NCBI RefSeq assembly: GCF_000027125.1
Contig: NC_017626.1
Length of the DNA: 64,000 nucleotides
Source: Escherichia coli 042
GTDB taxonomy: Bacteria; Pseudomonadota; Gammaproteobacteria; Enterobacterales; Enterobacteriaceae
Direction: 5' to 3' (one strand)
The notes under the pieces were generated by a model. It was given only the letters and a program-made list of their open reading frames with translations. It made no database searches and was not told the origin of the DNA. The translations under genes were made by a program, and so were the position numbers. Positions 59,331-63,096 of the stretch are shown in pieces; the stretch's first letter is position 1; each line of letters opens with the position of its first letter.

Positions 59331-61997
59331 GTGAATAACATGGAAAATTCGGCAGCCCTGTTACGTCGTCTTAATCATTACTGTGCCCGTGCACTGGAAG
59401 GCGCAGCCTCCCTTTGCCAGACCCGGGCCCATGCGGAAATCACCCCGGAGCACTGGTTACTGAAACTGCTGGAGCAGGGGGAAGGAGACCTTACCGTGCT
59501 GGGCAGGCGTTATGACTGGGATATGGACGCGATATGGCAGTCGCTGCTCGGCTGGCTGGATAACCAGCCCCGTAGCGTACGCAGTCGCCCGCAGCTTGCG
59601 CAGTCCCTGAATGCTCTGCTGAAACAGGCCTGGATGGTGGCCTCATTACAGGGAGAAGAACATATCCGCAGCGTGCATCTGCTGGGTGCCCTGACGGAAA
59701 ATCCGCACCTGGTTCGCTGTGACGGGCTGTGGCCTCTGCTGACACTGAGTCAGAGCCAGTTGCAGCGTCTGTCCCCGCTGCTGGATGCGCAGTCTGATGA
59801 GTGTCCGGAGACGTTACAGGATGCAGAGCCTGTGCTGCCTCAGGGAGACAGTGTGACCTTTATCGGGCGCCCTGTCGGTGCGGATACGGCAGGTATACCG
59901 TCAGGTGACCTGCCGCCGGTGTTACAGGGTGCGCTGGATAAATTCACCCGGGACATCACGGCCAGCGCGAGAGAGGGGAAAATTGACCCGGTATCGGGAC
60001 GCGATACGGAAATCCGTCAGATGGTGGATATTCTCTCCCGCCGTCGCAAGAATAACCCGATTCTGGTGGGGGACCCCGGTGTGGGGAAAACGGCTCTGGT
60101 GGAAGGGCTCGCCCTGCGTATTGTGGAAGGTAACGTACCAGAATCTCTCAGACCCGTCACCCTGCGCACCCTTGACCTCGGCCTGCTGCAGGCCGGTGCC
60201 GGCGTGAAAGGTGAATTTGAACAGCGTCTGAAAAACGTGATTGATGCCGTGCAGCTGTCACCGGCTCCTGTACTGCTGTTTATAGATGAAGCCCATACCC
60301 TTATCGGTGCCGGTAATCAGGCCGGTGGCGCGGATGCGGCCAACCTGCTGAAGCCTGCGCTGGCGCGAGGCGAACTGCGCACCATTGCTGCCACCACCTG
60401 GTCTGAGTACAAACAATACCTGGAACGTGACGCGGCTCTGGAGCGGCGTTTTCAGATGGTCAAAGTGGACGAGCCGGATGATGAGACGGCCTGTCTGATG
60501 CTGCGCTCCCTGAAATCCCGTTATGCGGAACATCATAACGTGCATATCACCGATGAGGCAGTACGTGCTGCCGTCACACTCTCGCGCCGTTATCTGACAG
60601 AACGTCAGTTACCGGACAAGGCCGTTGACCTGCTTGATACTGCTGCTGCCCGTGTGCGGATGAGCCTCGACACGGTGCCGGAACAGCTGACCCGAATCCG
60701 TTCACAGCTCGCTTCCCTCGGTATGGAAAAACAGGCACTGCTGGAAGATATTGCCGTTGGTCATCAGAATCACGGCGAACGCCTGTCTGCCATTGAGCAG
60801 GAAGAGAACGTGCTGATGACAGCACGTGATGACCTGGAGCAGCAGTACGCCCGTGAGTGCGAACTCACCGGTGAGTTACTTGAAAGCCGCAGCGATATTT
60901 CCCGCCAGAGTGAGACACATCACCTGCAGCAGGCACTGCACGACATTCAGCAGAATCAGCCCCTGCTCAGTGTGGATGTTGACGTACGCACCGTTGCCGG
61001 TGTGGTCGCGGACTGGACCGGAGTGCCGTTATCCTCACTGATGAAGGATGAACAGACGGAACTGCTGCATCTGGAAAAGGATATCGGCAGACGGGTGGTC
61101 GGACAGGACGTGGCACTGGAATCCATTGCACAGCGTCTGCGTGCGGCGAAAACGGGTCTGACATCCGGTAACGGCCCCCAGGAGGTGTTCCTGCTGGTCG
61201 GCCCCAGTGGTGTGGGAAAAACCGAAACGGCACTGGCGCTGGCAGATGTGATGTACGGCGGCGAAAAATCACTGATTACCATCAATCTGTCGGAATATCA
61301 GGAGCCCCATACGGTTTCCCAGCTTAAGGGTTCACCGCCCGGGTACGTGGGATACGGTCAGGGGGGTATTCTGACGGAAGCTGTACGTAAGCGCCCTTAC
61401 AGCGTGGTGCTGCTGGATGAAGTGGAAAAGGCCCACCGGGATGTGCTGAATCTGTTCTACCAGGTGTTTGACCGGGGCTTTATGCGCGACGGTGAGGGGC
61501 GTGAAATTGACTTCCGTAATACGGTCATTCTGATGACCTCCAATCTGGGCAGTGACCTTCTGATGCAGCAACTGAGCGAAAAGCCGGAGACAACGGAATC
61601 GGAGCTGCATGAGCTTATCCGTCCACTGCTGCGCGACCACTTCCAGCCAGCACTGCTTGCCCGTTTCCAGACCGTGATTTACCGTCCGCTGACACCGTCT
61701 GCTATGCGCACCATTGTGGAGATGAAGCTTGCACAGGTCTGCGAACGCCTGCACTGCCATTATGGGCTGAGCACATCGGTTGATGAACGTGTGTACGATG
61801 CCCTGACATCCGCCTGCCTGCTGCCGGATACGGGCGCCCGGAATGTGGAGAGTCTGCTGAACCAGCAACTGCTGCCGGTACTGAGCCGGCAGTTGCTGAG
61901 CCATATGGCCGCGAAGCAGAAACCGCAGGCGCTGGCTCTGGCATGGAGTGACGAAGACGGTATGGTGATTGAGCTGCGGCAGGAATGCGCGTTATGA
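59331..61997 (+). CDS. clpV: ClpV (TssH) AAA+ sheath-recycling ATPase (888 aa)
   Basis: Two Walker A motifs ([18 protein letters not shown]) and ClpB-like architecture. Confidence 0.95.
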
Positions 61998-62560
61998 CCG
62001 GCTATGGCAGAAATCAGGACGCTGGCGCAGGTAAAAATCAAAGGGAAGAAGGCTCATTGCGGTTACTGACGCCGGGAGAGATTGCGCTGGCGAGGCTGGT
62101 ATTCAGGTTGACAATCCCTTATGAAAAGGTCTGGATCCACCATGACAGTTTTCTGCCTTTTGGTCTTCAGAATAAGCAAACTGCCATGCCCCCCGATGGT
62201 AAGATTTATTTCCGTGAGCACTATCGGGATGATTATTCACTCAGCGTTCCCTTTTATCAGCATATGTTTATTCATGAAATGGCGCATGTCTGGCAGCGTG
62301 AAAAGGGAATGAATGTCATCGGTCGGGGGATGTTCAGTTGGGCGGTGAATTACCGTTATGTTCTGGACGGGCGTCTGTTAAGCGAATATCCCATGGAGCA
62401 GCAGGCACAAATTATTGCTGATCATTTTACTTTGCAGGCTGAAGGATACGGGACATGGTGTGATATGAGAAGGGACGGTGATATCACACTGGACGGAAAT
62501 ATGTCTGAGTATGTTATTCGCAGCCTGTATACCAGCACGTTGCGGGGGTTCCCATGGTAA
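61994..62560 (+). CDS. Hypothetical HExxH-motif (zincin-like) protein, 188 aa, no signal peptide; candidate T6SS effector
   Basis: ATGA overlap with the clpV stop; motif FIHEMAHVWQ; sits between clpV and vgrG. Confidence 0.6.
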   Translation: MTGYGRNQDAGAGKNQREEGSLRLLTPGEIALARLVFRLTIPYEKVWIHHDSFLPFGLQNKQTAMPPDGKIYFREHYRDDYSLSVPFYQHMFIHEMAHVWQREKGMNVIGRGMFSWAVNYRYVLDGRLLSEYPMEQQAQIIADHFTLQAEGYGTWCDMRRDGDITLDGNMSEYVIRSLYTSTLRGFPW

Positions 62561-63096
62561 AAATAAGAGCCTTTCGTTATCGTTCTGCTTTACTGCTCTG
62601 TCTGACGTTACTGACAGGATGCCCCGGACGCGGGGATTATTATCGGTTTGATGAAACAGTAACGGTCAGCACAAGAGGCGACAATGTGTGTTTCAGTGTC
62701 CCGGAGCCAGAGGACTACCAGCCAGTCAGCGTTTCCATCGCTCCACGGGGAACCCGATTCAGGGAGCGGCAAATTACATCTGAACCCTCGCTTCGTATCG
62801 TGAACGGCCAGCTGTGCATTCCGCCTTCATTCTGTCTTTTTCCTGATAAAGGCCAGTTCATTGTCAGGTCTGTTCTGCACTCTGAGCGCGATAAGGACAC
62901 ACCGCGCATCATGGTTGCCGGCATAGAGATTGCCGACGGGTGTATTTTCGATATCCCGCTTAATGACATGGAGGTCGTGAGGCCATACGGTGAGCTGAAA
63001 AGCAGTAATGTTCAGACTGACCAGAGCGAACGTCATGGTCCCTGCAAATACCCTTTCAGAGCTGTTCGTGGAGTGATAAATCATGAATCTCACTGA
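62554..63096 (+). CDS. Hypothetical lipoprotein (lipobox LLTGC), 180 aa; candidate cognate immunity protein
   Basis: Signal peptide + LTGC lipobox. Start overlaps the stop of the HExxH gene by 7 nt; its end overlaps the vgrG start. Confidence 0.6.
   Translation: MVKIRAFRYRSALLLCLTLLTGCPGRGDYYRFDETVTVSTRGDNVCFSVPEPEDYQPVSVSIAPRGTRFRERQITSEPSLRIVNGQLCIPPSFCLFPDKGQFIVRSVLHSERDKDTPRIMVAGIEIADGCIFDIPLNDMEVVRPYGELKSSNVQTDQSERHGPCKYPFRAVRGVINHESH

Follow-up and report, generated by a model that had tools for sequence, protein, structure and literature searches.

What do the two small genes that separate clpV from vgrG contribute to a type VI secretion system (T6SS) cluster of Escherichia coli? They lie close to the end of a 64,000-nucleotide stretch of E. 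coli DNA, hereafter the window, and are called ORF1 and ORF2 (ORF, open reading frame). Our answer, to which we assign a probability of roughly 88%, is that they encode an antibacterial T6SS effector together with its immunity protein, a pair from the Tpe / VgrG2b-C-terminal metallopeptidase family. It is carried by the homology of ORF1 in sequence and fold, its intact catalytic residues, the family membership of ORF2, the conserved pairing of the two genes and their synteny. Toxicity, action in the periplasm and neutralisation by binding would be expected of them from the behaviour of their orthologues.

61994–62560, + strand: ORF1, 188 residues, a free-standing zinc metallopeptidase (gluzincin) of the VgrG2b-C-ter/Tpe family, predicted T6SS cargo effector
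62554–63096, + strand: ORF2, 180 residues, a lipoprotein of the DUF7480 family on the periplasmic side, predicted to be the cognate immunity protein (from PF24295, NF045617, identity to SARI_02726 and gene linkage)

A first-pass annotation had described ORF1 as a signal-less protein of 188 residues carrying the motif FIHEMAHVWQ with glutamates downstream. This description holds. As read from the sequence, the N-terminus is hydrophilic and contains no signal peptide; the motif occupies residues 92–101, and alignment singles out E135 as the glutamate that provides the third zinc ligand.

62273–62287, + strand: HEMAH motif (H94, E95, H98), two zinc ligands and the catalytic glutamate; invariant in 119 homologues and aligned with H935, E936 and H939 of VgrG2b
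62396–62398, + strand: E135, within MEQQAQII, the third ligand of the zinc, with E983 as its counterpart in VgrG2b; invariant in the 119 homologues and aligned with the EQQ glutamate of 6H56

Searching the sequences of the PDB with ORF1 gave one strong match, 6H56, the effector domain of VgrG2b (phmmer E-value, E, 7.9e-20, residues 22–153), which the profile of the 119 homologues matched with E 1.3e-29. The spacing from the histidines to the distal glutamate agrees between the two proteins once 7 residues inserted in VgrG2b are allowed for. Since all four active-site residues align with those of VgrG2b and are invariant, ORF1 is, as judged from its sequence and predicted structure, a free-standing VgrG2b-C-ter/Tpe gluzincin with an intact active site.

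Given the 119-sequence alignment, AlphaFold2 modelled ORF1 with a predicted local distance difference test score (pLDDT) of 79.6 and a predicted template-modelling score (pTM) of 0.77; prediction from the single sequence was unusable (pLDDT 32.7). The model has the thermolysin-like gluzincin core typical of the family fold. Its sole Foldseek match in the PDB is again 6h56 (E 1e-8, template-modelling score about 0.6, 35% identity), and VgrG2b itself gave a similar picture in structural searches (Wood et al. 2019, PMC6899460). Profile and structure alike place ORF1 in a zincin toxin family.

The last six residues of ORF1, L-R-G-F-P-W (window 62540–62560), are nearly invariant among the 119 homologues, and the protein almost always terminates there. 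The start of ORF2 overlaps this conserved C-terminus; the conservation could stem from the overlap or from a functional C-terminal motif. The label DUF4157 (now PF13699, eCIS_core) is often attached to the VgrG2b-C-ter family (PMC6899460). ORF1 has no match to this Pfam model above the gathering threshold, and the VgrG2b C-terminal domain reaches E 0.13 and 12.8 bits at a cut-off of 22; the label is not family-defining. In public databases, homologues of ORF1 appear as 'type IV secretion protein Rhs', 'vgr related protein' or 'hypothetical protein', the E. coli records H97 and H105–H109 included. The family counts at least 246 clusters and has neither a Pfam nor an NCBIfam model, which leaves an annotation gap.

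ORF2 begins with MVKIRAFRYRSALLLCLTLLTGC, in which a basic n-region and a hydrophobic core precede the lipobox. The earlier description of a 180-residue protein with a classic lipoprotein signal is borne out, the motif being L-T-G-C23.

62554–62622, + strand: lipoprotein signal peptide and lipobox L-T-G-C (Cys23, 62620–62622), then the conserved tether P24-G-x-G27-D28; from the sequence and a 40-member alignment

The protein matches Pfam PF24295, DUF7480 (E 2.2e-11, 44.3 bits, cut-off 27), and NCBIfam NF045617, 'putative T6SS immunity periplasmic lipoprotein' (E 5.2e-24, 84.7 bits, cut-off 43). G22, C23, C46 and C88 are invariant in 40 family members; P24, G27 and D28 are kept in at least 90% of them, at a mean column identity of only 44%. 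ORF2 is probably stabilised by a C46–C88 disulfide, and PA0261, the periplasmic protein that neutralises VgrG2b, depends on DsbA (PMC6899460). Sorting to the outer membrane is expected because the +2 residue is Pro and not Asp. This agrees with the orthologue SARI_02726 of Salmonella arizonae, which was recovered in the outer-membrane fraction (Wood et al. 2019, PMC6899460).

ORF2 and its closest relatives also carry a C-terminal tail of about 30 residues (roughly residues 150–180; window 63010–63096) that is absent from SARI_02726. The tail cysteine C164 co-occurs with a cysteine at position 130, only in the closest relatives of ORF2, which suggests a second, subgroup-specific disulfide between C130 and C164.

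How far can function be read across from characterised relatives? The C-terminal domain of VgrG2b is a zinc-dependent antibacterial toxin that acts in the periplasm and is neutralised by periplasmic PA0261 (Wood et al. 2019, PMC6899460). VgrG2b makes cells bleb at mid-cell, and in vitro it reduces the lipoproteins associated with membranes (PMC6899460). Tpe1/Tpi1 of Acinetobacter baylyi was grouped in the VgrG2b-C-ter family, and stand-alone Enterobacteriaceae copies with lipoprotein partners were listed in 2019, SARI_02727/SARI_02726 of S. arizonae being an example; the enterobacterial immunity partners are outer-membrane lipoproteins (PMC6899460). Sent to the periplasm, SARI_02727 is toxic to E. 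coli (Front Microbiol 2026, PMC12992299). SARI_02726, a DUF7480 lipoprotein, partially rescues growth, and the complex of the two predicted by AlphaFold 3 has an interface pTM (ipTM) of 0.87 (PMC12992299). An S. arizonae mutant without both genes loses the competition against the wild type, not against an effector mutant (PMC12992299). VgrG2b, Tpe1 and SARI_02727 have been shown to be secreted by way of the T6SS and to be toxic in the periplasm through their catalytic residues (PMC6899460; PMC12992299).

The S. arizonae SPI-20 locus was recovered in our own scan as L020 (5953–6522 and 6516–6980), with proteins of 189 and 154 residues. Their identity to ORF1 and ORF2 is 64% (E 4e-84) and 43% (E 4e-43), respectively, and the locus shares with the window both the order TssK...hcp-clpV-E-I-vgrG (E, effector; I, immunity) and the 7-nucleotide (nt) ATGGTAA overlap. 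Identity, overlap and gene order together make the window pair the syntenic orthologue of an effector-immunity module that has been validated by experiment. The two loci differ in detail: ORF2 is 26 residues longer than SARI_02726, with the extra cysteines C130 and C164 in its tail, and in S. arizonae a gap of about 250 nt precedes vgrG, whereas ORF2 and vgrG overlap directly in the window. The first-pass annotation had proposed an effector-immunity module here, which VgrG2b homology, the DUF7480/NF045617 match and the validated S. arizonae orthologues support well. Its view that a metallopeptidase effector was uncharacterised for this type of cluster does not stand: the family was defined in 2017–2019, and the SPI-20 copy, in the same hcp-clpV-E-I-vgrG setting, was tested in 2026. 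Nor is the pair wholly new to annotation, since RefSeq, which calls ORF1 a 'hypothetical protein', already labels ORF2 'putative T6SS immunity periplasmic lipoprotein'.

Other systems resemble the pair less closely. The VgrG2b toxin (PDB 6H56) forms one polypeptide with the VgrG spike, an 'evolved VgrG', whereas ORF1 is a separate cargo protein. The metallopeptidase of Tpe1/Tpi1 (ACIAD0053/0054), in the account of Ringel et al. 2017 that PMC6899460 gives, is like ORF1 a small cargo protein that stands free and belongs to this family. An Acinetobacter homologue, P0190, shares 35% identity with ORF1 (E 7e-22). The tpe1 genes of Acinetobacter are linked, however, to PAAR genes and not to clpV-vgrG, and a transmembrane helix anchors Tpi1 in the inner membrane (PMC6899460), whereas ORF2 is a lipoprotein. 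In the Acinetobacter Tpe1-like locus L086, which is not that of A. baylyi and was inspected for a partner resembling Tpi1, the 384-nt downstream gap contains no ORF of at least 40 residues. Tae4/Tai4 and Tle1/Tli1 likewise combine, within a T6SS cluster, a signal-less enzyme that acts in the periplasm with a periplasmic or lipoprotein immunity protein; being an amidase and a phospholipase, the enzymes are unrelated in fold and chemistry to the gluzincin peptidase ORF1. A paper on an Enterobacter T6SS was set aside as a precedent, its gluzincin being a different one that is fused to VgrG.

The surroundings of the pair are those of a T6SS core operon. The window is 100% identical to the chromosome of E. 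coli 55989 (NC_011748.1) at its T6SS cluster, in which the genes follow the order tssB-tssC-tssK-tssL-(OmpA family protein)-hcp-tssH(clpV)...vgrG-tle1-tli1. In the genes it contains, the cluster corresponds to the Sci-1/T6SS-1 type of enteroaggregative E. coli (EAEC). RefSeq gene boundaries in the 55989 chromosome agree with the coordinates read from the window, and its annotation places tle1, two copies of tli1 and a PAAR gene downstream of vgrG.

59297–59308, + strand: ops-like element GGCGGTAGCGTG, an exact match between hcp and clpV, probable RfaH loading site
59340–61997, + strand: clpV / tssH, the T6SS ATPase; from the ORF list, the sequence and the RefSeq annotation of E. coli 55989
63083–64000, + strand: vgrG1, 5' part (it continues past the end of the window), candidate carrier; from the sequence

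All three junctions are translationally coupled in the way first described. The clpV stop TGA (61995–61997) overlaps the ORF1 ATG (61994–61996) by 4 nt in an ATGA junction; the ORF2 ATG, at 62554, lies 7 nt ahead of the ORF1 stop (ATGGTAA); the vgrG ATG, at 63083, lies 14 nt ahead of the ORF2 stop. An alternative in-frame ATG of ORF1 at 61985 would give 191 residues, and RefSeq starts the gene at 61994. The 64-kb window holds a single exact match to GGCGGTAGNNTG, with 0.09 expected by chance. A reporter placed between clpV and EC042_4531 in EAEC is reported to need both ops1 and rfaH (bioRxiv 10.1101/2025.02.08.637259), and we infer that the element of the window corresponds to the ops1 of this preprint. 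With an ops-like element upstream and this dependence just 3' of clpV, the ORF1–ORF2 pair is probably under RfaH control: RfaH antitermination probably governs transcription of clpV and of the effector-immunity pair downstream. E. coli 042 is not among the 34 genomes found to carry the cassette, and EC042_4531, which may or may not be the same gene as ORF1, serves in the literature found only as a landmark for the reporter insertion.

Is the pair a unit elsewhere too? We scanned one genome per species and obtained 79 loci, from Enterobacterales and one Pseudomonas plasmid. In 71 of them an ORF2-like gene lies directly 3' of the effector gene, nearly always with L-T-G-C followed by P-G. Because both proteins are conserved and their order is kept at so many species-representative loci, ORF1 and ORF2 are real genes and not chance ORFs. 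T6SS core genes adjoin 52 of the 79 loci, as they do the window pair within its Sci-1 cluster; 47 occupy the clpV-vgrG slot, 2 a slot between tssA and tssF, and 3 lie beside other T6SS genes. No T6SS core gene lies within 6 kb of the remaining 27, whose neighbours are housekeeping genes. At least nine species loci carry two to four immunity-like genes in tandem. Median identity to the window proteins falls from 93% for Hcp through 78.5% for ClpV, 68% for the N-terminal part of VgrG and 62% for the effector to 43% for the immunity protein: the immunity gene diverges faster than the effector and core genes. Strict pairing, orphan copies, immunity arrays and a fast-diverging immunity gene are usual signatures of T6SS effector-immunity systems, which argues against a structural or housekeeping role.

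Several of these loci are arranged unusually. Tandem DUF7480-like lipoprotein genes follow the effector in L005, L006, L014–L017, L022, L028, L033 and L078 (in L017 they lie 5' of it), apparently as orphan immunity genes in arrays; a second effector-immunity unit also seems to be present in L017. In L010 (Buttiauxella brennerae) and L012 (Atlantibacter sp. RC6) the pair occupies the slot between tssA and tssF, and Atlantibacter RC6 has a second copy, L007, about 15 kb off in the clpV-vgrG slot. The hcp-clpV-E-I-vgrG-tle1 proteins of L002 (Escherichia ruysiae, NZ_CABVLQ010000001.1) are 100% identical to those of the window, which suggests recent horizontal transfer of the island or mis-assignment of the species. 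In L008, L019, L024, L026, L038, L041 and L047, clpV is mostly or wholly gone between hcp and the effector, leaving only short remnants, and effector, immunity gene and vgrG are kept, which suggests clusters that have been degraded or rearranged.

Within E. coli, the cassette is found at 97–100% identity in 34 of 5,426 complete genomes, and a divergent allele (about 70% nucleotide identity) occupies the same position in four more. A closely related clpV is present in about 89 E. coli genomes, and in 36 genomes the clpV-vgrG slot is filled by a different cassette. Its first gene encodes a protein of 213–226 residues without a Pfam match, called 'Ssp6 family T6SS pore-forming effector' in one record. 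The second is an unannotated ORF of 83 residues, rich in hydrophobic segments, which is possibly the immunity protein (example L081:6476–7380, E. coli STEC308). With another cassette there in 36 genomes, the clpV-vgrG junction is a slot in which effectors can be exchanged, and ORF1 and ORF2 are not needed for the machine to work. E. coli STEC313 carries both types of cassette, at two loci.

Other readings of the locus must be weighed against these results. ORF1 could be an accessory enzyme that works on the envelope or T6SS parts of its own producer, for instance by remodelling locally for assembly like TagX, or like MltE when Sci-1 recruits it, with ORF2 as a regulator or an anchor. A place in the middle of the core operon, coupling to clpV and vgrG and a family without a known substrate would all suit such a role. 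A signal-less ORF1 could not, however, reach the periplasm of the producer alone; 27 of the 79 pairs stand outside any T6SS cluster, nearly all with the lipoprotein gene; related Sci-1-type clusters of E. coli have an Ssp6-family effector instead of the pair, which is therefore dispensable for the machine; and deletion of the pair in S. arizonae sensitises the strain to its parent (PMC12992299). We regard an accessory role as highly improbable. Equally hard to credit is a decayed or silent cassette, in which delivery of ORF1 has ceased and ORF2 survives solely as a defence against related attackers. Truncated effectors or extra orphan immunity-like genes do occur in L059, L061, L064, L071, L076, L079 and L080, and tandem immunity genes in L005, L006, L014–L017, L022 and L028. 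In the window, though, both ORFs are full length with all catalytic residues intact and the overlaps preserved, and the cassette is 97–100% identical across 34 complete E. coli genomes.

Somewhat less improbable, though still very unlikely, is that ORF1 acts mainly or additionally on host cells, as a trans-kingdom effector of an enteroaggregative pathogen. This was proposed for VgrG2b, with uptake into epithelial cells via the microtubule network. VgrG2b has been described as active on eukaryotic and bacterial cells alike (PMC6899460; PMC4453011), and the 2026 Salmonella paper leaves the question open for SARI_02727 (PMC12992299). An antibacterial role is nevertheless argued for by the dedicated periplasmic immunity gene retained in 71 of the 79 loci, and the family is widespread in plant-associated and environmental Enterobacterales.

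Other observations weigh against the assignment of ORF1 and ORF2 as an antibacterial effector-immunity pair. We rebuilt the VgrG2b C-terminal fragment from the PDB alignment, which led to a Pseudomonas aeruginosa contig with vgrG2b-PA0261-tle3-tla3 and so to PA0261 itself (L084:492–989). It has an ordinary signal peptide and not a lipobox. No sequence relationship between ORF2 and PA0261 is detectable by BLASTP (E 0.47), and PA0261 does not match DUF7480. Comparison of the 40-sequence ORF2 family with PA0261 as a single sequence in hhalign gave a probability of 1.3%, at which very remote homology is still possible. Membership of ORF2 in a PA0261 family was dropped after these negative BLASTP, Pfam and hhalign results; the dissimilarity may reflect extreme divergence or independent recruitment. 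Because of it, the assignment of ORF2 as an immunity protein rests on SARI_02726 and gene linkage, not on PA0261. On the effector side, ORF1 reaches the threshold of no Pfam or NCBIfam model and matches no Pfam family at E up to 1. VgrG2b showed no detectable peptidoglycan hydrolase activity (PMC6899460). The toxicity of A. baylyi Tpe1 to E. coli was seen only in low-salt medium (PMC6899460). Adjacency to vgrG is not obligatory, because orphan copies exist. Finally, a literature search by locus tags, family names, DUF7480/NF045617 and Sci-1 metallopeptidase returned nothing on the E. coli ORF1 and ORF2 proteins.

Taken as an effector-immunity pair, ORF1 and ORF2 would work as follows. ORF1, transcribed and translationally coupled with clpV, ORF2 and vgrG, would be synthesised in the cytoplasm without a signal peptide and loaded non-covalently as cargo of the Sci-1 T6SS. 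VgrG1, Hcp and PAAR are candidate carriers: vgrG1 is adjacent, the 21 kDa of ORF1 would suit Hcp, and Acinetobacter tpe1 is linked to PAAR genes. ORF1 would then be injected into neighbouring Gram-negative cells, where its HExxH...E zinc site may cleave one or more envelope proteins in the periplasm of the prey. By analogy with VgrG2b, such cleavage would lead to mid-cell blebbing, a block of division and lysis. In sister cells, Sec would export ORF2, Cys23 would receive the lipid, and the protein, probably stabilised by the C46–C88 disulfide, would probably go to the outer membrane; from there it would bind and block incoming ORF1 in the periplasm.

How ORF2 might block the toxin invites one speculation. 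An unproven proposal of Wood et al. is that VgrG2b cuts lipoproteins within the linker that joins the lipid anchor to the folded domain (PMC6899460). The enterobacterial DUF7480 lipoproteins, possibly unrelated to PA0261, might inhibit the toxin as substrate mimics through their conserved C-P-G-x-G-D tether. We consider this unlikely. If the tether did plug the active site, the pair would point to the substrate class of the whole Tpe family.

The kind of module described here is already known, its E. coli copy is an additional predicted member, and the practical value of the finding is modest. It corrects annotation, as ORF1 homologues are widely mislabelled and have no Pfam or NCBIfam model. 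For the cluster itself, in which the phospholipase Tle1 is the only annotated effector, ORF1 adds a second predicted antibacterial effector, and the clpV-vgrG junction of E. coli emerges as a swappable slot that holds either a Tpe-type pair or an Ssp6-type cassette.

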